64,000 nt of DNA from an uncultured Phycisphaeraceae bacterium (GTDB taxonomy: Bacteria > Planctomycetota > Phycisphaerae > Phycisphaerales > UBA1924), in contig CAYWRO010000011.1 of NCBI GenBank assembly GCA_964460345.1, positions 1,872 to 65,871 of the forward strand, in the 5' to 3' direction. Shown here in pieces: positions 1 to 62,235 of the stretch; within the stretch, counting starts at the first letter, position 1, and every line of letters begins with the position of its first letter. The notes beneath the pieces were generated by a model that worked only from the letters and a program-made list of their open reading frames with translations, ran no database searches and was not told where the DNA came from. The position numbers and the translations under genes are program-made.

Positions 1-1039
1 CCGGGACGAGGCGCTGGCGGCCCGCGGCGACGGTGATGTCGATGTCGGTCAGGCGGCCGTCCTGGCGGGCGACCATGCGGTTGGTGCGTCCGGCGAGGAT
101 GAGTTTCATGGCGTGGTGGCCGAAGCCGGTGGCGAGGATGCGGTCGGCGGCGATGGGTGGGCCGCCGCGTTGCACGTGGCCGAGGACGACGTAGCGCGAC
201 TCGACGCCCGTGCGCTGTTCGACGGCGTCGGCGATGAGGTGGGAGATGCCGCCGAGGCGAATGGGATCCGGGCTGGCGGGGTCGAGACGGCGGACGACCG
301 GCTTTCCGCCGACGGGGCGTGCGCCTTCGGCGGCGCAGATGATGGTGAAGCCGCGGCCGCTGGAGCGTCGGCGTGTGACGACGTCGGCCACGGCGTCCAT
401 CGAGAAGGGGATCTCGGGGAGGAGGATGACGTCGGAGCCGGAGGCGACGCCGGCGTGCAGGGCGAGCCAGCCGGCGTTGCGGCCCATGACCTCGACGACC
501 ATGGCGCGGTGGTGGCTGGCGGCGGTGGTGTGGACGCGGTCGAGCGCTTCGGTGGCGATGGCGGCGGCGGTGAGGAAGCCGAAGGTGATCTCGGTGCCCT
601 CGATGTCGTTGTCGATGGTCTTGGGGACACCGATGCACGGAACGCCGCATTCGACGAAGCGGGCTGCGCCGGTGAGGGTGCCGTCACCGCCGACGACGAC
701 GAGGGCGTCGATGCGGGCGTCGGAGAGTGTCTGGAGGCAGCGGTCGGTGAGGTCTTCAAAGACGAGCGCGCCGTCGGGGGCTTTTCCTGTCGGGTAGCGG
801 GCGGGGTTTGCCTTGTTGGAGGAGCCGAGGATCGTGCCCCCGATGGTGAGGATGCCGGAGACGTCCTGGAGGTTCAGTTCGCGCCAGCGTCCCTCGATGA
901 GGCCGAGGAAGCCGTCCGGGATGCCGACCACCTGGATGCCGTGGAAGATCGCCTCTTTGGTGACGGCGCGGATGACGGCGTTGAGGCCGGGGCAGTCGCC
1001 GCCGCCAGTGAGGAGGCCGATTCTGCGAGGGGGGGGCAT
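1..1039 (-). CDS. pfkA: ATP-dependent 6-phosphofructokinase, N-terminal ~346 codons (3' end lies beyond the window start)
   Basis: Absent from the ORF track because it is open at the window edge. My reverse translation from ATG at 1039 reads MPPPRRIGLLTGGGDCPGLNAVIRAVTKEAIFHGIQ, later VVVGGDGTLTGA and GVPKTIDNDI, the canonical PFK motifs. The 113..1513 + ORF is its antisense shadow. Confidence 0.9.
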   Translation of the reverse strand, partial: MPPPRRIGLLTGGGDCPGLNAVIRAVTKEAIFHGIQVVGIPDGFLGLIEGRWRELNLQDVSGILTIGGTILGSSNKANPARYPTGKAPDGALVFEDLTDRCLQTLSDARIDALVVVGGDGTLTGAARFVECGVPCIGVPKTIDNDIEGTEITFGFLTAAAIATEALDRVHTTAASHHRAMVVEVMGRNAGWLALHAGVASGSDVILLPEIPFSMDAVADVVTRRRSSGRGFTIICAAEGARPVGGKPVVRRLDPASPDPIRLGGISHLIADAVEQRTGVESRYVVLGHVQRGGPPIAADRILATGFGHHAMKLILAGRTNRMVARQDGRLTDIDITVAAGRQRLVP

Positions 1040-1153
1040 GGGGGATTGTTGGCGCGAGGCGGATTTGTGATCGGGCTCCGGGGTGCGAGGTGCGCGAGGG
1101 CCCCTTTCAGGGGAGCAGCTGGTACAACTTGCCCGCCAGACCCCCCTGTTGCG

Positions 1154-1405
1154 GGGCCAACTTGCGGTAAAAGCGGGCCGGAACACTTTATTTGTCCAGC
1201 CACACACTCTCTTTGTGGGCCCACGAAGAAACTTCTCGGGCCCGAGAAGAGACTTCTTTGGCCCATGAACGTCCTTCTCGGGCCCGCGAAGAGGCTTTTT
1301 GGGCCCGTCGACCTTCTTCTTGGGCCCATCAAGAGACTTTGCGGGCCCGGCAACGCTCTTCGTGGGCCCATCGACTCTCTTCTCGGGCCCGCGATGGACT
1401 GCCGT
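1154..1405. repeat. Tandem array A: about 12 units of 21 bp (9 well conserved) built around palindromic GGGCCC
   Basis: GGGCCC or a one-mismatch variant starts at 1154, 1175, 1217, 1238, 1259, 1280, 1301, 1322, 1343, 1364 and 1385. Every interval is 21 or 42 bp. Units read GGGCCC-nn-GAAGAnnCTTCTy. Confidence 0.9.
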
Positions 1406-1522
1406 GCCGCGGGGAGCTTCGCATCTGCCGCGTTGGCACCCGGCTGTCGCGCGGGTTGTCAGAGCGGCGCGCCGGGAAGGATCGGCTGCGGCCGCGGCGG
1501 CCGGGGGCCTTGATGCGGCGGC

Positions 1523-1539
1523 TTGGCACGCCGGTTGAT
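1523..1539 (+). promoter_or_regulatory. Candidate sigma54-type -24/-12 promoter upstream of the hsp20 cluster
   Basis: TTGGCACGccggTTGAt compared with consensus TGGCACG-N4-TTGCW; only the C of TTGC differs. It lies 68 nt upstream of the hsp20 ATG at 1607. Confidence 0.35.
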
Positions 1540-1606
1540 ATCCGCTCCGACGAAGGGTCAGAAGGCCGGGTGTGGCAGCCCGGATGTTTGAGAAGGAGGA
1601 CAACCG

Positions 1607-2059
1607 ATGTTGACACGAACGCTGTTGCAAAATGATCCGTTTGTGGCGCTGTCGCGTGAAATGGATCGCCTGTTTGAGACGTTTGCACCGACGGGGACTT
1701 CTGCGCCGGCGCTGGTGCGCGGGCAGTTTCCGATGCTGAACATCTGGCAGACGGATGAGGAGGTCCATGTCGAGGCGGAACTGCCGGGCTTCCGGCGCGA
1801 GGATGTAAGCGTGCTGGTCTTCGATGATGAACTGACGCTCAAGGGTGAGCGGCGCATCGAACATCCGGAAGAGGCGCGCATCGTCCGCGCCGAGCGGGCC
1901 GCGGGCAGCTTCGAGCGCTCCGTCAGGCTTCCGGTCGCGGTTGACGCCGACGGGACGACGGCGTCGTTCACCGACGGCGTGCTGCACATCACGCTGCCGA
2001 AGGCCGCGGCCGCGCTGCCGCGCCGGATCGAGATTACATCCGGCGAGCAGCGCGAGTAA
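1607..2059 (+). CDS. Hsp20/alpha-crystallin family small heat-shock protein
   Basis: 150 aa with an alpha-crystallin core (NIWQTDEEVHVEAELPGFRREDVSV ... GSFERSVRLP ... ASFTDGVLHITLPK). AAGGAGGA RBS sits 7 nt before the ATG. Confidence 0.9.
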   Translation: MLTRTLLQNDPFVALSREMDRLFETFAPTGTSAPALVRGQFPMLNIWQTDEEVHVEAELPGFRREDVSVLVFDDELTLKGERRIEHPEEARIVRAERAAGSFERSVRLPVAVDADGTTASFTDGVLHITLPKAAAALPRRIEITSGEQRE

Positions 2060-2107
2060 GCGTGGGGAGCAGGCGTGCGTGTTGGTTTGAAGAAGGAGGA
2101 CTGCACC

Positions 2108-2521
2108 ATGGCTGAGACGAACGCTATTACGAGAACGGAGCCGCAGAACGTGACCACCCGGCGCGCTGAGCCGGACTCGCGCAGCGCCGCCTGGTCGTAC
2201 CGCCCGCCGACGGACATCGTCGAGACCGGCGAGGGGTACACCCTCTGGGTCGATGTGCCGGGCGCCTCATCGGAGACGATCGACCTGAGCGTGGAAGACG
2301 GCGTGATGAGCATCCAGGCGCATGTGCCGCCGCGATATCCGGAGAATGTTCGTTTCGCGCACCAGGAGTACGGCGTCGGGAACTATCACCGCCGCTTCCG
2401 GCTGGGCGATGACATCGATCAAGAGGGAATCCGCGCCTCCTGCGAGCGCGGCGTGCTGACCGTTACGATGCCGAAGCGCGCCGCCGCGCGGGCTCGGCGC
2501 ATCGAGATCACGAGCAACTGA
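2108..2521 (+). CDS. Hsp20/alpha-crystallin family small heat-shock protein (second copy)
   Basis: Motifs TDIVETGEGYTLWVDVPGASSETIDLSV ... GNYHRRFRLG ... ASCERGVLTVTMPK. I prefer the ATG at 2108 (AAGGAGGA RBS just upstream) over the track start at 2075. Confidence 0.85.
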   Translation: MAETNAITRTEPQNVTTRRAEPDSRSAAWSYRPPTDIVETGEGYTLWVDVPGASSETIDLSVEDGVMSIQAHVPPRYPENVRFAHQEYGVGNYHRRFRLGDDIDQEGIRASCERGVLTVTMPKRAAARARRIEITSN

Positions 2522-2535
2522 CGGTGAACAGATGC

Positions 2536-2570
2536 GGGGGCGGCGGCGTAGCAGCGCGGTCGCCCCCTTT
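2536..2570 (+). terminator. Possible intrinsic terminator after hsp20 copy 2
   Basis: GGGGGCG (2536-2542) pairs with CGCCCCC (2561-2567) and is followed by TTT. The loop is long (18 nt). Confidence 0.35.
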
Positions 2571-2641
2571 CTCATGCCGCCATGCGGTGTGGCGGCTCGC
2601 GGCCCCGGGGCGGCGCACCACGAAACACAGGGGAAACTTCC

Positions 2642-4129
2642 ATGAACCGTCATTCGTTACGAGGCACGCTCGGTCGTTCCGCTGCGCTCACGGCGGCCCT
2701 CAGCGCAGTCGCGCTGTCGGCGCCGCTGGCGCTGGCCGACCGCCAGGATGTCACACCGGAACAGGCGATCGCGACGGCCGAAGCGCTGTCGGTCGCGTTT
2801 GAGCGGGCGGCGGCCCAGGTACGGGACTCGGTCGTGAGCATCACGACGCGTCGCGAGCCGGAGCAGCGGCAGCAGCCGATGCGCCAGCCCTTCCGCAACA
2901 GCCCCTTCCGCGACTTCTTCGGCGACGACTTCTTCGAGCGCTTCGAGATGCCGCCGCAGCAGCCCCAGATGGGGCAGGGCTCCGGCTGGATCTTCCGCGA
3001 AGACGGCTACATCGTCACCAACGCGCATGTGGTGGCGGGCGCCGACACCGTGACGGTGCAGTTCACGGACGACCGCCAGATGGAGGCCGAGGTCGTCGGC
3101 GTCGACCGCCAGACGGATGTGGCCGTGCTGAAGGTCGACCAGTCCGGCCTGGCGGCGGTGCAGATCGGCGACTCCGATGATCTGCGGATCGGGCAGTGGG
3201 TGATCGCGGTGGGCACGCCGTTCGGACTCGATTCGACGATCACGGCGGGCATCGTCAGCGCAACGGGGCGCTCGCGCGTCGGGCTGGCCGACTATGAGGA
3301 CTTCATCCAGACCGATGCGGCGATTAACCCCGGCAACTCCGGCGGGCCGCTGGTGAACCTGCGCGGCGAGGTCGTGGGGATGAACACCGCGATCTATACG
3401 CAGAACACCTTCGGCGGCCGCGGCGGCAACATCGGGATCGGCTTCGCCATTCCAATGCGGATGATCCAGGCGGTCGCCGCGGACCTGATCGAGGACGGCC
3501 AGGTGACGCGCGGCTTTTTGGGCGTGAACATCCAGGATTTGTCGGAGGGGCTTGCGCAGTCGTTCGGCTTCTCCGGGACGGAGGGCGTGCTGGTGGCGGA
3601 CGTCGTGGATGGCACCCCCGCGGCGGAAGCGGGCCTCCAGAGCGGGGACATCATCACGAGCATGAACGGGCGGAAGGTGTCGGACATGAACGACCTGCGG
3701 ATGCGGGTCGCCTCGACCGAGCCAGGCACGGAGGTGGAGTTCACCTTCTTCCGCGAGGGCGTTGAGAAGCAGGCGACGATCACGATCGGGAAGCTGGATG
3801 CGGAGCAGCCGGTCGCCTCGCGGCGCTCGGAGGGGCGGCTGGAGGCGAATCTGGGGCTGACGGTGCAGACCCTGGACGCGGCGACGGCGCGGCAACTCGA
3901 GGTGGATCCGAACCTCGGCGGGGCGGTGGTGATGAACGTGCAGCCCGGCAGCGACGCCCAGCAGGCGGGGCTGATGCGGGGCGACATCATCCTCCGGGTG
4001 GGCCAGGAGCGGGTGCGAACCGCGGAGGAACTGCGGTCCGCCCTCGCCGAGCATGACCTTAAGGAGGGCGTGCGGCTGACTGTGCGGACCGGGACGGCGA
4101 ACCGGTTCGTGTTCCTGCAGGCGAGGTAG
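2642..4129 (+). CDS. HtrA/DegP-family periplasmic serine endoprotease with two PDZ domains
   Basis: Catalytic triad contexts TNAHVV, DVAVLKV and GNSGGPLVN, followed by two PDZ-like segments. A signal-like N-terminus (MNRHSLRG..ALSAPLALA) supports the start at 2642 rather than 2582. Confidence 0.9.
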   Translation: MNRHSLRGTLGRSAALTAALSAVALSAPLALADRQDVTPEQAIATAEALSVAFERAAAQVRDSVVSITTRREPEQRQQPMRQPFRNSPFRDFFGDDFFERFEMPPQQPQMGQGSGWIFREDGYIVTNAHVVAGADTVTVQFTDDRQMEAEVVGVDRQTDVAVLKVDQSGLAAVQIGDSDDLRIGQWVIAVGTPFGLDSTITAGIVSATGRSRVGLADYEDFIQTDAAINPGNSGGPLVNLRGEVVGMNTAIYTQNTFGGRGGNIGIGFAIPMRMIQAVAADLIEDGQVTRGFLGVNIQDLSEGLAQSFGFSGTEGVLVADVVDGTPAAEAGLQSGDIITSMNGRKVSDMNDLRMRVASTEPGTEVEFTFFREGVEKQATITIGKLDAEQPVASRRSEGRLEANLGLTVQTLDAATARQLEVDPNLGGAVVMNVQPGSDAQQAGLMRGDIILRVGQERVRTAEELRSALAEHDLKEGVRLTVRTGTANRFVFLQAR

Positions 4130-17958: not shown

Positions 17959-20900
17959 ATGCCCAAGCGAACCGACATCAAAACCATCCTCATCCTCGGC
18001 TCCGGCCCCATCGTCATCGGTCAGGGGTGTGAGTTCGACTACTCCGGCACCCAGGCGTGCAAGGCGTTGCGCAGCGAGGGGTTCCGGGTTGTGCTGGTGA
18101 ACTCGAACCCGGCGACGATCATGACGGACCCGGAGTTCTCCGACCGGACGTACATCGAGCCGATCACGCCCGCGGCGGTCCGGAAGGTGATTGAGAAGCA
18201 GATCGAGATCGGGGACCCGATCGACGCCATCCTGCCGACGCTTGGCGGGCAGACGGCGCTGAACTGTGCGTGTGCGCTCTTTGACGATGGGACGCTGGAC
18301 AAGCACGGGATCGAGATGATCGGGGCGAACCGGCACGTGATCCACCGGGCGGAGGATCGCGCCGCGTTCAACGAGGTGTGTGCGCGCGTGGGGCTGCGCA
18401 TCCCGGAGAGCCGGACGGTCTCGACACTTGCCGAGGCGCGCGAGTTTCTGGAGCAGATCGGGCTGCCGGCGATCATCCGTCCGGCGTTCACGCTCGGCGG
18501 CAGTGGGGGAGGAATCGCGTACAACACGGAGGAGTTTGACGAGATTGTCAGCCGCGGGCTTCGGCTGAGCATGATCAACCAGGTGCAGATTGACAAGTCG
18601 CTGCTGGGGTGGAAGGAGTACGAGCTGGAGGTCGTGCGCGACAAGCGCGACAACTGCATCGTGGTGTGCGGGATCGAGAACTTCGATCCGATGGGCGTGC
18701 ACACGGGGGACTCGATCACGTTTGCGCCGATCATGACGCTGACCGACAAGGAGTATCAGGTGCTCCGCGACGCCAGCTTTGCGATCATGCGCGAGGTGGG
18801 CGTGGAGACGGGGGGGAGCAATGTGCAGTTCGCGGTGAACCCGAACCCGGAGGATGGGAAGTTCGAGTTCGTCGTCGTCGAGATGAACCCGCGCGTGTCG
18901 CGCTCCAGCGCGCTGGCATCCAAGGCGACGGGCTTCCCGATTGCGAAGATCGCGGCCAAGCTTGCGATCGGGTACACGCTGGACGAGCTGCGCAACGACA
19001 TCACGGGCACGACCAGTGCCTGCTTCGAGCCGAGCATCGACTACATCGTCACGAAGATGCCGCGGTGGACCTTTGAGAAGTTCCCCGAGGCGGATGAGAC
19101 GCTCACCACGCAGATGAAGAGCGTCGGCGAGGCGATGAGCATCGGGCGGACGCTGACCGAGTCGCTCCAGAAGGCGATCCGCTCGATGGAAGTGAAGCGC
19201 TTCGGCCTCGGGCTCGACCGCAACGACGACTGGCTGGAGGCCCGCCGCGCGACGAAGGACGAGCAGGGCGTGCCGCGGCGGACGGACGGCTCGCCGATCG
19301 AGTGGCCGATCCCCGAGGAGAAGCTGAGCCGCAAGCTCACGGTGCCGAGCCAGGGGCGGCTCTACTACATCCGCTACGCGATGAAGATGGGGTGGCCCGT
19401 CGAGCGCATCAACGCGCTTTCGAAGATCGATCCGTTCTTCTTGGACCAGATCAAGCGGCTCGTGGAGTTCGAGGACGAGCTGTGCGAGGTTGCGCGCCTG
19501 GAGGATTTGCCGCGCGAGACGCTTTTCCGCGCCAAGCAGATGGGGTACTCCGATGCGCAGCTTGCGAACCTGTACCTCGGGAAAATCTCGTCGGAGACGA
19601 TTCTGAAGGTGCGGGCGCATCGGAAGGCGCTCGGGATCGAGCCCGTCTACAAGCTCGTCGACACGTGCGCGGCGGAGTTCGAGGCGGTGACGCCGTATTA
19701 CTACTCGACGTATGAGCAGGGGGTGGAGCGGGCGAGAGACGGAGAGACGGAGAGACGAAGAGACGAAGTGGGGGATTCGCAAACGTCGTCCGACGCGCGA
19801 CACTCCGTCTCTTCGTCTCTAAGTCTCTCCGTCTCTCCCGACGACGAGATCCGCGTGACGGACCGCAAGAAGGTGATCATCCTCGGTGGCGGACCCAACC
19901 GCATCGGCCAGGGGATCGAGTTCGATTACTGCTGCGTGCACGCGGCGTTCGCGGCGAAGGAACTCGGCTTCGAGTCGGTGATGATCAACTCGAACCCGGA
20001 GACGGTATCAACCGACTACGACACGAGCGATCTGCTCTTCTTTGAGCCGTTGACGCTGGAGGATGTGCTGAACGTGGTGGAGCGGCTGAACGGGTCGGGG
20101 CCGGCAGTGGAGCAACTCGTCACGTCGGACGGGATCACGCTTGGCTTGGATCGTGCAAACGATGGTCAGCAGGTCCCTCCAGATTGGATTCAGCAGATTC
20201 GTCAGGCCGCGAGTGGCGCGGGTATCGGCCCCGTTGCAGTCGTGGACGCATTTCAGTCGCGGCACGAGACCGGAGTTCATGCCGTCGATCTTTCGGGAGG
20301 GTTGTGGAGGTTTGCGTTCAACGCTAAGAGCGGGGGCCCGGTCCACGTCGCGCAGTGGAACTGGGATGAAGCGCTGGGCGGTGACAATCGCGAGGAACGT
20401 GAACTGGCAGCGGCGTGGAGGGAACGTCGACGCCTCGTCAACGGCCTCATCGTCCAGTTCGGCGGCCAAACCCCCCTCAACCTAGCCCACGGCCTCGCCC
20501 GCGCCGGCGCCCCCATCATCGGCACCTCTCTCGACTCGATCGACCTCGCCGAAGACCGCGACCGCTTCGACAAGCTCCTCACGCAGCTCAATCTTCAAAA
20601 ACCTCCCAGCGGCATCGCCCGCTCCGTCGATCAGGCCGTTGAGATCGCCGGCCGCATCGGCTACCCCGTTCTCGTCCGCCCCTCGTACGTCCTCGGCGGC
20701 CGCGGCATGGAGATCTGCTCCGACGAGAAGGCCTTGCGGCACTACATGGCGACGGCGGTGGACATTTCCGAACTCGACAACGCCCCGGTGCTGATTGATA
20801 AGTTTCTTGATCGGGCGACGGAAGTGGATGTTGACGTCGTGGCTGACTTCGAACCTTCGGGGAGAGACAAAGAGACAAAGAGACGAAGAGACGAAGTGGG

Positions 20901-21936
20901 GGAGCCACAAGGTGCGTCCACCGCACAACACCCCGTCTCTTCCTCCCAGGCCATCTGCTGCGGCGTCATGGAGCACATCGAGCAGGCGGGCATTCACTCC
21001 GGCGACTCCGCCTGCACCACGCCTCCCTGGTCGCTCGCGAAGGACACCGAGCAGGAGATCCGCCGCATCGCCCGCACGCTGGCCGAGGCGCTGCGCGTAA
21101 ACGGCCTCATGAACGTCCAGATGGCCGTGAAGCAGAACGGCGACTCGAACGGCGGGGGTGATGAGATCTACATCCTCGAGGTCAACCCCCGCGCCTCCCG
21201 CACCGCGCCCTTTGTCGGCAAGGCCAAGCACGTTCCCTGGCCGCGGATCGCGGCCCGCGCCATGATGGGCCTCTCCCTCGCCGAGCAGAACGTTCGCGAA
21301 GTCCGCGACACGGGCGCATTCGCCGTCAAAGAGTCTGTCTTCCCCTTCAGCAAGTTCCCCAACGTCGATGTCGTCCTCGGTCCGGAGATGCGCTCGACCG
21401 GCGAGGTGATGGGCATCGACGCTTCGTTGCCGATCGCCTTCGCCAAGAGCCAGTTCGCCGCGAGCGTGGACCTGCCGCTTGAAGGCGCAGTCTTCATCTC
21501 CGTGCACGAGCGGGACCGGCAGGAAGTCACGGGCGTCGCCCGTCTCCTCGCCGAGATGGGTTACACGCTCTACGCGACGGCAGGCACCGGAGCACACCTC
21601 CAGCAGCACGGCGTCGAGGCGCACATCCTTCAAAAGATCGCCTCGGGCGCGCGCCCCAACGTCATCGACCTGATGAGCGACGGGAAAATTCAGTTTGTCA
21701 TCAACACGGCGACAAAGGTTGGCTGGCAGACAGACGAGGGCCGCATCCGTGCCGCGGCGACCCGCCTGGGCATTCCGATGATCACCACCATGACGGGCGC
21801 GCTGGCCGTTGCCAAGGCGATCCTCGCCCTGCGGGAACGGGGCTGGGGTGTCAAGGCGATGCAGGACTACGCGGCGGAGAGCGGAGCGCCGGTGGTGCAG
21901 GTCAAGGCCGCCTCGGGCGAGCCGGCAGCGAGGTAG
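17959..21936 (+). CDS. carB: Carbamoyl-phosphate synthase large subunit (1325 aa, about 250 aa longer than typical)
   Basis: [33 protein letters not shown] at 17959; second half [24 protein letters not shown]; [16 protein letters not shown]; MGS-like C-terminus. The track start at 17569 is an in-frame extension. Confidence 0.93.
19734..19837. repeat. Purine-rich octamer-repeat inverted-repeat element, in frame inside carB
   Basis: The 37-nt arms (GAGAGACG)x3-AAGAGACGAAGTG at 19734-19770 and 19801-19837 are 34/37 complementary, around a 30-nt loop. Confidence 0.8.
20862..20945. repeat. Second copy of the octamer-repeat element, in frame inside carB
   Basis: GAGAGACAAAGAGACAAAGAGACGAAGAGACGAAGTGGGGGA. 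Positions 20879-20903 are identical to 19751-19775 (25 nt). There is a partial right arm CACCCCGTCTCTTCCTC. Confidence 0.75.
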
Positions 21937-27120: not shown

Positions 27121-29814
27121 ATGAACACGCCACGCATGCAAACTCGCCATCGGAACATCGCTTGCAGACACCCGCGCCTCGCCGCGGCTCTTCTGGCCGC
27201 GTGCGGCCTGGCCGTCACGCTCGCCGTTCCGGCCGTCTCGATCGCGCAGGAAGGCCAGCCGGACGAGATGATCCAGCGCGAGATTCGCCAGCTTCGCAAC
27301 TCGCTGGAAGACCTTGAAGCCCGCGCGCTGGAGGTCCGCATCAGCATCGCCGAAGCCGACGATGGAGATGAGCGCGCTCGGCTTCAGGACGAACTCTTCG
27401 GCATTGAGTCGGAGATCGAGACGGTCCGCGAGTCGATCATCCGCCGCGGCGGGGACCCGGACGCCGCCGCACAGCCTGCGCCGGCCCAGCCTGCCCGGCC
27501 CGGTGTTGACCGCAGGGCCGAGGCATTGGCCGCCCTGCAGCAGGCCGAGGCCCAGGAGGGCATGGTCGAGATCGGTCCGTTTTCCGAGCCGGTCGACATC
27601 ATGCGGCTCGTTGAGTTCGTCCAGCAACTGCTGGATCTGAACCTCATGGTGGTCGACCCCGGCCTCGAGGGCCAGCAGGTCGTCATCCGCACCCCGATCT
27701 CCGTCCCGGAAGAAGGACTGCTCGACTTCCTCGTCCTTCTGCTCGAGCAGAAGGGCTACACGCTCGTGCCCGATCGCGGCGTCTACCTCATCGTGCAGAG
27801 CGTCAATCCGCCGGCGGGGCCCGCCACGACGCAGATCATCCCGACGCAGGGGCTGCGTCCCAGCCAGGTGGCTCAGCTCATGAGCAGCATCGTGGCGCAG
27901 AGCGGCCGCATTCAGCCGCTGGATGAGATGGGTGCGCTGCTCGTCACGGCGACGCCGCGCCAGATCGGGCTGGTCAACGACCTGCTCAACGACCTGGTCG
28001 CCAAAGCCAGCGAGGTGCAGTGGTTCCGCTTCGATTTGAAGCACGTCACGGCTGACATCGCTCGTCAGCGCATTCTCGAACTTCTCGATCCGGCCCGGGG
28101 CGCACCGCGCACGCCGGTCCCCGGTCAGCAGGCCGACCCCCGCAGCGCCGTCGCCGTCACCGCTTCCGTCGTGGATCTCCCCCAGCGCCTCACCGTCGAC
28201 AGCCAGTCCAATGCGCTCATCTTCAAGGGCCGCCCGGATGAGCAGCTCATGCTTGAGGATCTGCTCAAGGTCGTCGACCAACCGAGTGAACTCGTCACAC
28301 GCTGGTACGAGGTCAGCATGGAGACCGCCACGAAGATGGTCAATGCCGGCCAGCGCGAGGGCCTCGGCCGCGTTGTCTATGAGGACGCCGTCGGCCAGCA
28401 GCCCGCCTTCCGCAGCGTTCGGGCGCCGCAGCTTCAGAATCAGTTTGATACCACCGGCGGCCCCGCCTTCATCATCTATCCCGACGCCTCCGGCTTCATG
28501 TACTACGGCACCGAGACGCAGCACCAGCGCATCGAACAGCTCATGTACCAGTTCGAGGGCATCGAGAGCGGCGACACGATCGTTTACGAGTTCTACAAGC
28601 TCAAGCACTCCGACGCCGCCGAGGTCGCCGCGCTCATCCAGGATCTCATTTCCTCTCAGGGGCAGGCCGGCAACCGCGGCCTTGTCGGTAGCGATCTCTC
28701 CCGTCGTGGCGAGCTCACGCCCCCCCCGCAGACGCCCCAGCCGGAGCCGCAAGTCCAGTCTCCCGCAGCGGGGGGCCTGGAAGCGCAGATCGGCGCGATC
28801 CTCCCCACGGAGGACATCAATGTCCTCGCCGACGAGTTCAACAACCAGATCATCGTGAAGGCGCCCAGCCGCCTGCAACCGGTCTTCGCCCGCATCATCG
28901 AAAAGATCGACCTCCGCCGCCCGCAGGTCTACCTCGAGGCGATGATCGTCACGGTGACCCACGACGACACCTTCAACTGGTCCGTCGATACCCAGGGCGT
29001 GTTCGGGCAGTTCGGCATCCAGAGCGTCTTCGGCCTCACCAGCGCCAGCGAGGGCGCCACGCTCCTTGATCCGCGTCAGGCAGGCACCGGTTTCAGGGGC
29101 CTCACGGCGGCCCTGATCCGCTCTGACAGCGTGCCGTTTGTGCTCAACGTGCTCGCCTCCGACGCGGACACCCGCATCGTCGCCAGCCCCCAGGTTTTGG
29201 TGGACGACAACGAGACGGCCACCATCCTGAGCCAGGAGGGCCAGCCGACCACCTCCATCAGCCAGGGCACGACCACCGACGTCACGAGCTTCCAGGGCTT
29301 CGAGGAGGCCGGTCCAGAGCTGACGATTACCCCCCATATCAGTGAGGGCGGCTACGTCCGGCTCGAGTTCGCCGCCACGCTCTCCTCCTTCATCGGCGAA
29401 TCCCCTTCTCCGGGGATCCCGCCGCCACGCCTCGAGAACAGCATCGAGACCAGCAGCGTACGAGTTCCATCGGACTCGACGATCATCGTGGGCGGTCTCT
29501 CCTTCGAGACCACCAGCGACACGGTCTTTAAGGTGCCGATCCTGGGGGACATTCCCCTGCTGGGGCTGGCCTTCCAGGACATCCGCAAGAACAACAGCAC
29601 AACCACGCTCTACGTCTTCATCACGCCGCGGATCATGCGGGATGACCACTTCCTCGGCGAGATCCTCAACACGGCCGAGCCGATCGCCGCGGCGGGCGTT
29701 GAACCCGCCGGGCCGCCGCCGCCGACCATCGCCAGGATGCGCCTGCGGTCGCACGACCGGCTTGCCGACGAGGTTGAGGAGACGTTGATGCGGTACGGAG
29801 ACACGGGCGAGTGA
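27121..29814 (+). CDS. gspD: Type II secretion-family secretin (GspD/PilQ-like)
   Basis: Signal-like N-terminus, repeated secretin N-domains, and a C-terminal secretin domain ending VPILGDIPLLGLAF....TTLYVFITPRIM. The track start at 26896 is an extension. Confidence 0.85.
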   Translation: MNTPRMQTRHRNIACRHPRLAAALLAACGLAVTLAVPAVSIAQEGQPDEMIQREIRQLRNSLEDLEARALEVRISIAEADDGDERARLQDELFGIESEIETVRESIIRRGGDPDAAAQPAPAQPARPGVDRRAEALAALQQAEAQEGMVEIGPFSEPVDIMRLVEFVQQLLDLNLMVVDPGLEGQQVVIRTPISVPEEGLLDFLVLLLEQKGYTLVPDRGVYLIVQSVNPPAGPATTQIIPTQGLRPSQVAQLMSSIVAQSGRIQPLDEMGALLVTATPRQIGLVNDLLNDLVAKASEVQWFRFDLKHVTADIARQRILELLDPARGAPRTPVPGQQADPRSAVAVTASVVDLPQRLTVDSQSNALIFKGRPDEQLMLEDLLKVVDQPSELVTRWYEVSMETATKMVNAGQREGLGRVVYEDAVGQQPAFRSVRAPQLQNQFDTTGGPAFIIYPDASGFMYYGTETQHQRIEQLMYQFEGIESGDTIVYEFYKLKHSDAAEVAALIQDLISSQGQAGNRGLVGSDLSRRGELTPPPQTPQPEPQVQSPAAGGLEAQIGAILPTEDINVLADEFNNQIIVKAPSRLQPVFARIIEKIDLRRPQVYLEAMIVTVTHDDTFNWSVDTQGVFGQFGIQSVFGLTSASEGATLLDPRQAGTGFRGLTAALIRSDSVPFVLNVLASDADTRIVASPQVLVDDNETATILSQEGQPTTSISQGTTTDVTSFQGFEEAGPELTITPHISEGGYVRLEFAATLSSFIGESPSPGIPPPRLENSIETSSVRVPSDSTIIVGGLSFETTSDTVFKVPILGDIPLLGLAFQDIRKNNSTTTLYVFITPRIMRDDHFLGEILNTAEPIAAAGVEPAGPPPPTIARMRLRSHDRLADEVEETLMRYGDTGE

Positions 29815-31562
29815 TGAGCCCTTTGACGAAGGTACGGCTGAAGAATCCGCTCAAGCGGGCCGCGGCGGGGCACGCCAACGGCGCCGCCGGTGCGCCGGAG
29901 AGCGGCGGCGGTGCGCTGGCGACCGCGCAGTGGGCCGCCGTGGCGCGCCGGTTTGGGGAGCTGACCGTTCATCCGGAGCAGCTTCGCTCTTACGCGCAGC
30001 TTCCGGACGCCGACAACGAACCGTGGGACGTCCTGCTGTCCGTGCTGGCGATCGATGAGCACACGGCCCTGGCCCGCCTCAGCGAGCGCACGGGCCTGCC
30101 CCTGCAGATCGAGCCGAAGTACCAGGAGTCCGCCGGCCGCTTCTACGAGGTCGTCTCGCCGAACACCGCGCGCGAGCGGCTGCTGGCGGGCCTGTCCAGC
30201 GATGGGCACGTCATGACCGTGGCCACCGCCCAGCCGATGCAGCCGGCCGTCTTCAACCAGCTTGAAGAGCAGCTCGGCATGCCGATCCGGCTCGTGCTCG
30301 CGCCGCGGGCGGCCGTGGTGAACCTCATCAACCGCGGCTACGAGCAGCGCCAGGACCTGGTCACCGAGATCGTCGAAGAGCTGCCGCTGGACGAGCGCGC
30401 GATCGAGTCCGCCGCCGGCTCGCTGCGCACGAGCACGGACCTTCTGCAGCTTGCGCGGCAGACGCCCGTCATCCGCCTCGTCAACATGATTCTCTTCGAG
30501 GCGCTGCGCCGCCGCGCCTCGGACATCCACGTGCACCCGATGGAGACGAAGCTGGTCATCCGCTTCCGCATCGACGGCATGCTTGTGGACGCCTTCCAGC
30601 CGCCCCTTGCGCTCGCGGCCGCGATCTCCAGCCGCCTGAAGGTGATGACCGAGCTGGACATCGCCAACCGCCATTCGCCGCAGGACGGCCACTCGACCGT
30701 GCGCGTCGGCAGCCGCAAGATCGACATCCGCCTCTCGTGCATTCCGACCGTGTACGGCGAGCGCGTCGTGCTTCGCCTGCTCGATCAGTCGCAGACGCAG
30801 CTCTCGCTCGACGAGGTCGGCATGACGCGCGAGATGCAGGAGGAGTTCGACGATCTCGTCGAGCGCCCCACGGGCATCATCCTCGTCACCGGCCCGACCG
30901 GCTCCGGCAAGACGACGACGCTCTACGGCGGGCTCGGCAAGATCGACCGCACCAGCCGCAACGTCATGACGATCGAGGACCCGGTCGAGTACCACCTTGA
31001 GGGGATCAGCCAGACGCAGGTGAACGTGAAGCGCGGCGTGACCTTCGCCGCGGGGTTGCGCTCGCTGCTGCGGCAGGATCCGGACGTCATCCTCGTCGGC
31101 GAGATCCGCGATCCGGAGACGGCGCAGCTCGCCGTGCAGGCGTCCTTGACCGGCCACCTCGTGCTGGCGACGCTGCACACCAACGACGCCCCGAGCGCCA
31201 TCGCGCGACTGATCGACATCGGCGTGGAGCCGTACCTGATCACCTCGACGCTGCTGGCGGTGATGGCCCAGCGCCTGCTTCGGCGCACGTGCACGGCCTG
31301 CGCCGGCAGCGGCCTCGACCCCGCGGGCGCGGAGGGGCGCTGCGAGCGTTGCTTCGGCAGCGGCTATTACGGCCGCATCGCGGTCTTTGAGATCATGCGC
31401 ATGACCGATGAGCTGCGCCACCTGACCATCCAGGGCGCCGACGCCGTCACGCTCGCCAACACGGCCCGCACGGGCGGCATGCGCACCATGACGGACGATG
31501 CGCGCGAGAAGGTCGCCCGCGGCCTGACCACCGAGGCGGAAATGCGCCGCGTCCTGCACTGA
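29811..31562 (+). CDS. gspE: GspE/PilB-family type II secretion ATPase
   Basis: Walker A VTGPTGSGKTTTLY, Walker B DVILVGEIRD, His box GHLVLATLHTNDA, tetracysteine CTAC...CERC. ATGA-type overlap with gspD. Confidence 0.9.
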   Translation: MMSPLTKVRLKNPLKRAAAGHANGAAGAPESGGGALATAQWAAVARRFGELTVHPEQLRSYAQLPDADNEPWDVLLSVLAIDEHTALARLSERTGLPLQIEPKYQESAGRFYEVVSPNTARERLLAGLSSDGHVMTVATAQPMQPAVFNQLEEQLGMPIRLVLAPRAAVVNLINRGYEQRQDLVTEIVEELPLDERAIESAAGSLRTSTDLLQLARQTPVIRLVNMILFEALRRRASDIHVHPMETKLVIRFRIDGMLVDAFQPPLALAAAISSRLKVMTELDIANRHSPQDGHSTVRVGSRKIDIRLSCIPTVYGERVVLRLLDQSQTQLSLDEVGMTREMQEEFDDLVERPTGIILVTGPTGSGKTTTLYGGLGKIDRTSRNVMTIEDPVEYHLEGISQTQVNVKRGVTFAAGLRSLLRQDPDVILVGEIRDPETAQLAVQASLTGHLVLATLHTNDAPSAIARLIDIGVEPYLITSTLLAVMAQRLLRRTCTACAGSGLDPAGAEGRCERCFGSGYYGRIAVFEIMRMTDELRHLTIQGADAVTLANTARTGGMRTMTDDAREKVARGLTTEAEMRRVLH

Positions 31563-31605: not shown

Positions 31606-31710
31606 AGTTCACGACAGAGACACTGAGACACGGAGAGGTCACGGAGAGTGCCGGGCGCTTTCTGTCCCTCTCGCCTGACTTTTCTCTGTGCCTCTGCGCC
31701 TCTGTGGTTC
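31606..31710. repeat. Intergenic purine-rich octamer-repeat imperfect hairpin
   Basis: Left arm CACGACAGAGACACTGAGACACGGAGAGGTCACGGAGAGTG faces the CT-rich right arm CTTTCTGTCCCTCTCGCCTGACTTTTCTCTGTGCCTCTGCGCCTCTGTGG. Both have an 8-nt periodicity. Confidence 0.6.
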
Positions 31711-31780
31711 AATTTATCAGTTGCACGGAGCGTCGCGTGGGTCCGCGGTTTGTTCGGGTCGAAGGTCCGGATAACGCAGG

Positions 31781-32011
31781 CAAATGATCAAATGAGCGGC
31801 CCAAATGATCAAATGGACCGGGCAAATGATCAAATGGACGGAGCAAATGATCAAATGGACGGGCCAAATGATCGAATGAGCGGGCCAAATGATCAAATGG
31901 ATGGAGCAAATGATCAGATGGCCCGTTTCATTCGTTCAGATGGATGGTTCAATCGTTCAAATGAGCGGCCCATTCGTTCAAGTGGCTCGTCCATTCGTTC
32001 GAATGAAGCGT
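31781..32011. repeat. Tandem array B: 11 units of exactly 21 bp (7 x CAAATGATCAAATGnnnnGnn, then 4 x yCATTCGTTCAAATGnnnnGn)
   Basis: CAAATGATC starts at 31781, 31802, 31823, 31844, 31865, 31886 and 31907. The variant units start at 31928, 31949, 31970 and 31991. Confidence 0.9.
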
Positions 32012-61925: not shown

Positions 61926-62156
61926 CCTGAAATGATTTCTGACGCACCAGAATTGATTTCGGACGAGTCGGACACGAGTTTGCACGCGTCGGAAGTGGGT
62001 CCGCACGCGTCCGAAACGACATCCGATGCGTCCGACACGAAGTCGCACGCATGAGAACTCAAGTCGGACGCATCAAAAACGAGGTTGCACGCGTCTCAGA
62101 CGAACTCGCACGCGTCTGAGATGAAATCGCACGCTCCTGAAATGAAGTCGCACACA
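61926..62156. repeat. Tandem array C: 11 units of exactly 21 bp (consensus TCnGAnAcGAnnTcGCACGCG)
   Basis: Unit starts at 61926, 61947, 61968, 61989, 62010, 62031, 62052, 62073, 62094, 62115 and 62136. A degenerate extra unit lies at 61905. Confidence 0.9.
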
Positions 62157-62172
62157 CGCCTCCCCGCCCCCC

Positions 62173-62235
62173 ATTCTCTATTCTCTCTTCTCTATTCTCT
62201 AATCACTACCCACTGTCCACTATCAACTATCAACT
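62173..62235. repeat. Nine tandem heptamers (ATTCTCT x4-like, then AnyCACT / ATCAACT)
   Basis: ATTCTCT ATTCTCT CTTCTCT ATTCTCT AATCACT ACCCACT GTCCACT ATCAACT ATCAACT. AT-rich, and immediately 3' of the rnr stop. Confidence 0.8.

Follow-up and report, generated by a model that had tools for sequence, protein, structure and literature searches.

What is a 104-bp palindrome of tandem octamers doing inside the reading frame of carB, the gene for the large subunit of carbamoyl-phosphate synthase? The question arises in a stretch of contig CAYWRO010000011.1 from an uncultured Phycisphaeraceae bacterium, 64 kb of the source genome that we analysed at full length and refer to as the window. Its carB (17962-21936, + strand; 1324 aa in translation) is host to two copies of the palindrome, called copies A and B below. 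To our knowledge, in-frame palindromic inserts in essential genes have so far been largely confined to Rickettsia. We regard it as probable that the carB element is a cargo-less miniature of a palindromic insertion family of the Phycisphaerales, selfish, tolerated and translated, and similar in kind to the intervening sequences (IVSs) of ribosomal RNA.

carB holds two octamer-armed palindromes in its reading frame

Copy A occupies positions 19734-19837 of the window (+ strand). Its 5′ purine arm (19734-19770), four tandem GAGAGACG units followed by AAGTG, is separated by a 30-nt loop (GGGGATTCGCAAACGTCGTCCGACGCGCGA; 19771-19800) from a 3′ pyrimidine arm (19801-19837) that begins with CACT and continues in CCGTCTCT-type octamers, or 4.5 units of CTCCGTCT. 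The two 37-nt arms are complementary at 34 of 37 positions (92%), and arm, loop and arm encode 12, 10 and 12 residues, respectively. The predicted RNA fold reaches −77.3 kcal/mol (z = −8.0), a stability that none of 200 dinucleotide shuffles equalled. The 1324-codon carB frame reads through the whole unit without a stop; the 3′ arm now contains a TAA out of frame.

When aligned with E. coli CarB (1BXR), the window's CarB resolves into four collinear blocks (E = 0), and copy A falls between E. coli residues 552 and 557, an interval of 4 residues in E. coli and of about 43 in the window. In the known E. coli structure, the oligomerisation domain meets the second synthetase half at this point. 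The initial annotation of this DNA had described an octamer-armed inverted repeat with a 30-nt loop, which lies in the linker that joins the synthetase halves of CarB and is translated in frame there; arms, position and reading frame all proved correct, the frame exactly as quoted. The adjoining oligomerisation domain (residues ~416-460; window 19207-19340) is itself ~20-25 residues longer than in E. coli CarB, a difference that is common to the orthologues and not repeat-derived.

The 25-nt core of the purine arm has 0.00 chance occurrences expected in the window and 2 observed. The second exact match (20879-20903) is in the same open reading frame (ORF), within copy B (20862-20945, + strand), which lies ~1.1 kb downstream of copy A and is collinear with it across the 5′ arm and loop. 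The 5′ arm of copy B (20862-20898) consists of GAGAGACA, AAGAGACA, AAGAGACG, AAGAGACG and AAGTG, and encodes 12 residues in the same translated register as copy A. Its 30-nt loop (20899-20928) is homologous to that of copy A, with 19 of 30 positions identical in an ungapped comparison. Only a 17-nt remnant of the 3′ arm persists (CACCCCGTCTCTTCCTC; 20929-20945; 82% complementary), the remaining arm having been lost, so copy B is decaying. It maps between E. coli CarB residues 771 and 774, where the second ATP-grasp domain forms a loop.

When CarB residues 514-1324 were modelled with AlphaFold2, the core came out with confidence, and the predicted local distance difference test score (pLDDT) drops below 50 at insert A (residues 79-110 of the model) and at insert B (455-478), values that are partly due to the shallow alignment in those columns. 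The model is consistent with both inserts being exposed, flexible segments, and copy A probably adds ~38 low-confidence, disordered residues to a surface linker. Rfam 15 gave no match at the gathering threshold across the whole window.

The core belongs to a family dispersed through the Phycisphaerales

The initial annotation had further proposed a genome search with the 25-nt core and a survey of CarB orthologues for presence or absence of the segment, and had likened the element to the Rickettsia palindromic elements (RPEs) in behaviour, with a different sequence family. Both checks were run. Besides the second exact match in the window, the core search uncovered at least 117 loci elsewhere, which makes this a dispersed repeat family; the segment is missing from many CarB orthologues; and the likeness held up together with its qualification, given that the matches are in Planctomycetota, chiefly Phycisphaerales, and have tandem-octamer arms.

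The family scan covered one genome per species with the pattern GAGACRRAGAGACRRAGTGGGG and returned those stretches, at least 117, nearly all from metagenome-assembled genomes (MAGs) of Phycisphaerales, Phycisphaeraceae, Tepidisphaeraceae or unclassified Planctomycetota, with several per MAG. A few core matches (L002, L065) are on contigs labelled Patescibacteria or Cyanobacteria, and these could be mis-binned Phycisphaerales or chance matches.

The family unit is a run of 3-8 RAGAGACG octamers ending in RAGTGGGG, the number of units varying among copies. Among the matches listed, 122 arrays divide into 14 hairpins and 108 solo arrays; the polarity is strict, with the complementary arm 3′ of the purine arm in 23 of 23 cases; complementary arrays are spaced bimodally, 8-180 nt or ~400-485 nt apart with none between; and no cargo other than PF05635 was found between them. 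Neighbouring arrays are built of other octamers, including GGCACGRA, GCGACGRA, GAGACTGA and more.

We counted an array as in frame if it had a stop-free frame and a GC3>GC1>GC2 signature (GC content by codon position) on both flanks. By this test, 15 of 110 evaluable arrays (~14%; again among the matches listed) are in frame in coding sequence, and their hosts by Pfam are Pol III alpha-type polymerases (DnaE; one with two hairpins), Mfd/TRCF, NadA, UDP-glucose dehydrogenase (Ugd), phosphoglucomutase, an amidohydrolase and a VWA protein. T is absent from the consensus purine arm and A from the consensus pyrimidine arm, so a stop codon is impossible in any of the six frames. A broader census of host proteins, using a profile of the read-through peptide against 5.8e9 proteins, yielded one weak match, the word prefilter of such a search probably failing on low-complexity peptides.

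Full-length relatives enclose a PF05635 gene between the same arms

At one locus, L073, a purine GAGACG array, an ORF of 116-123 codons and a complementary array lie between accB and accC. The ORF is a PF05635 gene (23S_rRNA_IVP; E = 2.7e-31), a family with genes of ~120 codons, the product of which we take to be an Avd-like four-helix bundle. Among the 117 loci listed, PF05635 genes number nine, and each has a purine array on one side and a pyrimidine array on the other, drawn from four octamer families. The cassettes with GAGACG arms share the inner ends AAGTGGGG and CCCCACT with the carB element, and in the full cassette of L107 the arms are predicted to pair across the PF05635 cargo. The carB element itself, with a loop of just 30 nt, has no PF05635 ORF. 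The encoded proteins (IVPs, from the family name) co-cluster only weakly with arm family: pairwise identity is 53-71%, and the best pairs are L030 with L032 (both GGCACG) and L006 with L107 (GAGACG vs GAGACT).

A second sample consisted of metagenome loci picked by PF05635 similarity alone, 72 of them evaluable, with GC from 0.30 to 0.72. Inverted arms flank the gene in 50 of the 72, and in 42 of those the arms are tandem 7- or 8-mers. Three of the 72 are nested in a host ORF, in the same relative frame as the Phycisphaerales cassettes. The heptamers and octamers that form inverted tandem arms around PF05635 genes in the metagenome loci L124-L203 include AGTGGTT, GAGTTGT, AGGGACT, GGCATTA and others. 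In open-access papers and preprints, we did not find tandem-repeat arms described as something that PF05635 cassettes generally have.

Three CarB loops exchange their contents

For the orthologue survey, we compared the 120 closest CarB proteins (60-80% identity; 1160 to 1391 aa). Nearly all the differences in length fall at three sites, namely A, B and a middle one (E. coli 631/636). Translated octamer arms, of the carB family or a sister family, occupy at least one of the three sites in 49 of the 120, and matches to the octamer-arm pattern number 78 at the three sites vs 1 elsewhere in the proteins. At the DNA level, hairpins of GGGATCAA octamers fill sites A and B of P0001. In P0024, site A is filled by a GAGACG hairpin whose loop measures ~7 nt, and the middle site by one made of GGCACG/GCGACG octamers. 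P0006, P0026 and P0003 have empty sites. On the CarB tree the octamer states are patchy, and the window's neighbours have empty sites.

P0014 and P0024 share 98.6% amino-acid identity in conserved columns, yet the middle site and site B are filled differently in the two, by segments that lie between identical boundaries and lack a target-site duplication. The same pattern of replacement separates P0048 and P0082, which are 98.2% identical. Because such near-isogenic pairs differ there, the three loops are hot spots with fast turnover.

The window has its own filling at the middle site, an extra segment of 119 aa (20083-20439) with a GC content at third codon positions (GC3) of 0.70-0.74 vs ~0.9 in the rest of the gene. 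Its predicted structure is a folded alpha/beta unit (pLDDT 70-87). Among 98%-identical orthologues this segment is present or absent, and the alternative allele, with the same boundaries, is a repeat array or hairpin. We considered whether it is host-frame read-through of a decayed PF05635 cargo and rejected this, having found no significant IVP signal in any frame; that it is a mobile domain of other proteins is likewise unsupported, with 3 weak matches in 1.8e9 representatives and none of them a convincing relative.

Does this turnover call for a mobile element at all? Local replication slippage at fragile loops, with hairpins made by template switching and the likeness to loci elsewhere put down to mutational bias, would account for the variable number of units, for the repeated involvement of the same three CarB loops, and for contents that are swapped between fixed boundaries without target-site duplications. 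It does not explain why an identical 25-nt core, including its non-repetitive AAGTGGGGGA end, occurs twice in the window and at no fewer than 117 loci, nor the homology of the 30-nt loops in copies A and B, the same arms and inner ends around PF05635 genes, or the polarity that holds in 23 of 23 cases. We consider slippage unlikely.

A second possibility is that selection maintains the hairpin in the carB mRNA as a cis-regulatory RNA structure, which would serve as a site for RNase III or make translation pause at a domain boundary, to the advantage of CarB expression or folding; it strikes us as equally improbable. The stem is very stable (−77 kcal/mol, z = −8), it stands exactly at the domain junction, and IVS stems are RNase III substrates (PMC4990558). 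The hairpin is nevertheless missing from the closest orthologues, including the empty sites of P0006, P0026 and P0003; octamer family and loop length vary at one and the same site; little of the 3′ arm is left in copy B; and similar elements are scattered over unrelated genes and intergenic DNA.

The host frame is kept open through the cassettes

If an insertion with a strong stem lies in a protein gene, is it translated or removed? The full cassettes are informative here, since excision or bypass would not constrain the host frame across them. Seven of the nine are embedded, in sense orientation, in a long host ORF, which no stop interrupts from the first arm through the cargo to the second. 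A DnaE2-like polymerase is the host of five, all at one and the same loop, and an amidohydrolase of two. In all seven, the PF05635 ORF is in frame +1 relative to the host. An eighth cassette, L030, lies antisense within a polymerase ORF. When the nine PF05635 genes were recoded synonymously, the host frame was open in 2-13% of trials per gene, compared with 8 of 9 cassettes observed (P = 4.9e-10). Thus selection keeps the host frame open through the cassettes, and the stop-free host frame is the strongest evidence for translation over removal. We found no description of PF05635 genes nested in protein genes in open-access papers and preprints.

The alternative is that the insert is not translated, either because it is excised and the ends are ligated, as in an IVS, or because ribosomes bypass it by a programmed mechanism, so that mature CarB would lack it. 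Excision of rRNA IVSs offers an analogy, and a long stem would bring the flanks together. Such removal would free the frame and permit stops, yet every CarB insert is in frame, both flanks always share a frame, and the eight open cassettes would be left without a reason; we judge this alternative very unlikely. There is a negligible chance that the palindrome arose as an artefact of sequencing or assembly, for instance through a fold-back chimera: library artefacts can create palindromes and the window's CarB has no record elsewhere, but orthologous hairpins occupy the same sites in independent assemblies (e.g. P0014 from JGI and P0024 from NCBI), the reading frame is preserved, and the core recurs in at least 117 loci across MAGs.

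The polymerases merit a fuller description. The DnaE2-like Pol III alpha proteins of L032 (3529-7710, - strand), L004, L006, L049, L107 and L030 all contain an entire PF05635 cassette, in one common loop lying between the Pol3-alpha domain and the finger domain. That of L032 also contains two in-frame solo arrays. The L004 polymerase (host ORF, oriented 314-3904) lacks ~55 conserved residues (VYDMIC..GVFQIESRAQ..) directly after the cassette, a gap that suggests an element-associated deletion or a decaying gene.

A probably translated relative of ribosomal intervening sequences

Taken together, we interpret the carB element as follows. Because full-length members enclose a PF05635 gene between the same arms, the family is a counterpart, outside rRNA, of the 23S rRNA intervening sequences, and the closer analogue of the carB element is an rRNA IVS, not a transposable element of the miniature inverted-repeat kind (MITE). 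The miniature would have derived from a full cassette by loss of the cargo. Phycisphaerales elements would live largely inside protein-coding genes and be read in the host frame, and where the cargo is present its gene is dual-coded, keeping that frame open. Copies A and B are then probably tolerated selfish passengers, presumably neutral, and not functional modules of CarB. As to how they spread, we would guess that they are copied, or replaced through recombination, at the repeat arms, perhaps with help from the PF05635 protein, a candidate factor of the element. Such a route is favoured because contents are replaced between fixed boundaries, because the loops of copies A and B are homologous, and because several families cluster at the same sites. 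We are evenly divided on a wider proposition: that PF05635 cassettes with tandem 7-8-mer inverted arms are a widespread undescribed selfish class, in which the Phycisphaerales cassettes and their miniatures are specialised for loops of essential genes through translatability in the host frame, which they would owe to arms free of stops and to a cargo gene overprinted on the open frame of the host.

Several observations weigh against this interpretation. The near-isogenic pairs record replacement and not simple cut-and-paste insertion. Copies A and B have no direct repeats at their borders, so no target-site duplication was found there, nor was one found in the comparisons P0014/P0024 and P0048/P0082, and the orthologues compared did not include a clean empty/filled pair for this exact carB insertion. 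The nearest CarB relatives of the window are only ~82% identical, too distant to date the insertion. Neither the 64-kb window nor any frame of carB contains a PF05635 signal, and no transposase parent with the same ends was seen between matching arms, PF05635 being the sole cargo, in a search for transposases that was not exhaustive. Hairpin loops are very variable among copies, unlike those of classical MITEs. The majority of arrays are solo. The Phycisphaerales loci were chosen by a GAGACG pattern, so proportions among them are possibly biased. Finally, it is only from frame conservation that the elements appear to be translated through the host frame and not removed.

Comparison with known repeats and insertions

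Among known systems, the IVSs of Coxiella, Leptospira and others come closest. The Coxiella IVS has an inverted-repeat stem that is cut by RNase III and an S23p ORF, near the start of which an AG-rich stretch is followed by tandem heptamers (GACAGAT) of variable number; it is regarded as selfish, and its origin and mobility are unexplained (PMC4990558). A PF05635-type protein was once proposed as the mobility factor of rRNA IVSs (work cited in PMC4990558). A stem enclosing a PF05635 ORF is what we find in all nine cassettes and in 42-50 of the 72 metagenome loci. Complementary termini are present in carB copy A and in the L107 cassette, and the carB element also has short tandem repeats (7-8 nt, variable number). 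The ORF is absent from the carB copy and present in the full-length relatives with the same arms. The two groups differ in location, rRNA IVSs being placed in a 23S rRNA helix, whereas the carB copy is in coding sequence and its relatives are in or between protein genes. They differ too in fate: rRNA IVSs are excised by RNase III, whereas the Phycisphaerales elements are seemingly translated in the host frame.

RPEs are dispersed palindromic repeats of ~100-150 bp, many of which lie in frame in unrelated housekeeping genes and are compatible with the fold of the host protein (PMC10969869). The carB element is similarly palindromic, dispersed and often in frame (CarB, DnaE, Mfd, NadA and Ugd). 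It does not belong to the RPE families, as judged from its matching loci in Phycisphaerales and other Planctomycetota and its GAGAGACG octamer arms. Moreover, RPEs encode a conserved peptide, whereas the loops of the carB family are highly variable, and the carB family is set apart by full-length relatives bearing PF05635, by re-use of the same loops and by turnover between families.

With MITEs, the carB element shares small size, terminal inverted repeats (37-nt arms in 104 bp), multiple copies, a non-autonomous appearance and occasional in-frame fusions. It differs from them in lacking a target-site duplication at copies A and B, and in an internal sequence that is not conserved between copies. 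Repetitive extragenic palindromes and bacterial interspersed mosaic elements (REP/BIME) are imperfect extragenic palindromes of 20-40 nt with a GTAG or CGTC head, associated with REP-associated tyrosine transposases (RAYTs); the carB element is intragenic and has tandem-octamer arms. Inteins, too, are selfish and interrupt large essential proteins, polymerases among them, in frame, but the carB family has no splicing motifs, sits in variable loops and not in conserved motifs, and, on the evidence above, seems to be retained in the protein. Palindromic amphipathic repeat coding elements (PARCELs) are coding repeats with dyad symmetry in their DNA that spread by genomic shuffling (PMC2996958). 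Coding repeats with dyad-symmetric DNA are common to both, whereas PARCELs are tandem domains of 25 residues in ORFs of unknown function, mostly membrane proteins, and the carB family consists of single hairpins in loops of conserved enzymes. In open-access papers and preprints, we found no prior description of palindromic or in-frame repeats in Phycisphaerae; the pertinent papers that those searches did bring up deal with the Coxiella IVS, MITEs and PARCELs.

Implications for hosts, annotation and ribosomal intervening sequences

The in-frame behaviour familiar from Rickettsia is now seen in a free-living phylum, where it is frequent and turns over rapidly at fixed protein loops. It is also physically linked to the PF05635 gene of rRNA IVSs, whose function and mobility have lacked an explanation from the early 1990s onwards. 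A testable model follows from the dual-coded cassettes, in which the arms would be recognition and structure modules and the PF05635 protein a candidate factor acting with them. For CarB, DnaE-type polymerases, Mfd and NadA, such elements would be a route to new surface segments. The inserts lengthen proteins and may mislead alignment, orthology assignment and gene calling in Planctomycetota MAGs. If the wider proposition on PF05635 cassettes is true, these elements live as a 'translated intervening sequence', in a manner that sets them apart from introns and inteins as well as from MITEs and bypass elements, and they would offer a handle on a long-standing question, the nature of rRNA IVSs and their ORFs.

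Other repeats in the window

Elsewhere in the window, a degenerate octamer-type hairpin (31611-31708, + strand) lies in intergenic DNA directly after the stop of the ORF at 29811-31562. It is built of GAGACAC/GAGACACG units, with 26-nt arms that are 77% complementary and a 46-nt loop, and it represents a sister family, not the same core as the carB copies. Next to it, 21-nt units (GGCAAATGATCAAATGGACGG and a related one) are repeated in tandem at 31779-31921 and 31953-32006. A 21/42-nt tandem array at 1216-1391 consists of units centred on GGGCCC (e.g. CTTCTCGGGCCCGAGAAGAGA), each of them palindromic. Finally, at 62087-62235, 21-nt repeats (GCACGCGTCTGAGATGAAATC) are followed by CCCCCC and then by solo pyrimidine heptamer arrays (ATTCTCT x4, CACTATCAA-like units), which may be solo arms of another 7-mer family.

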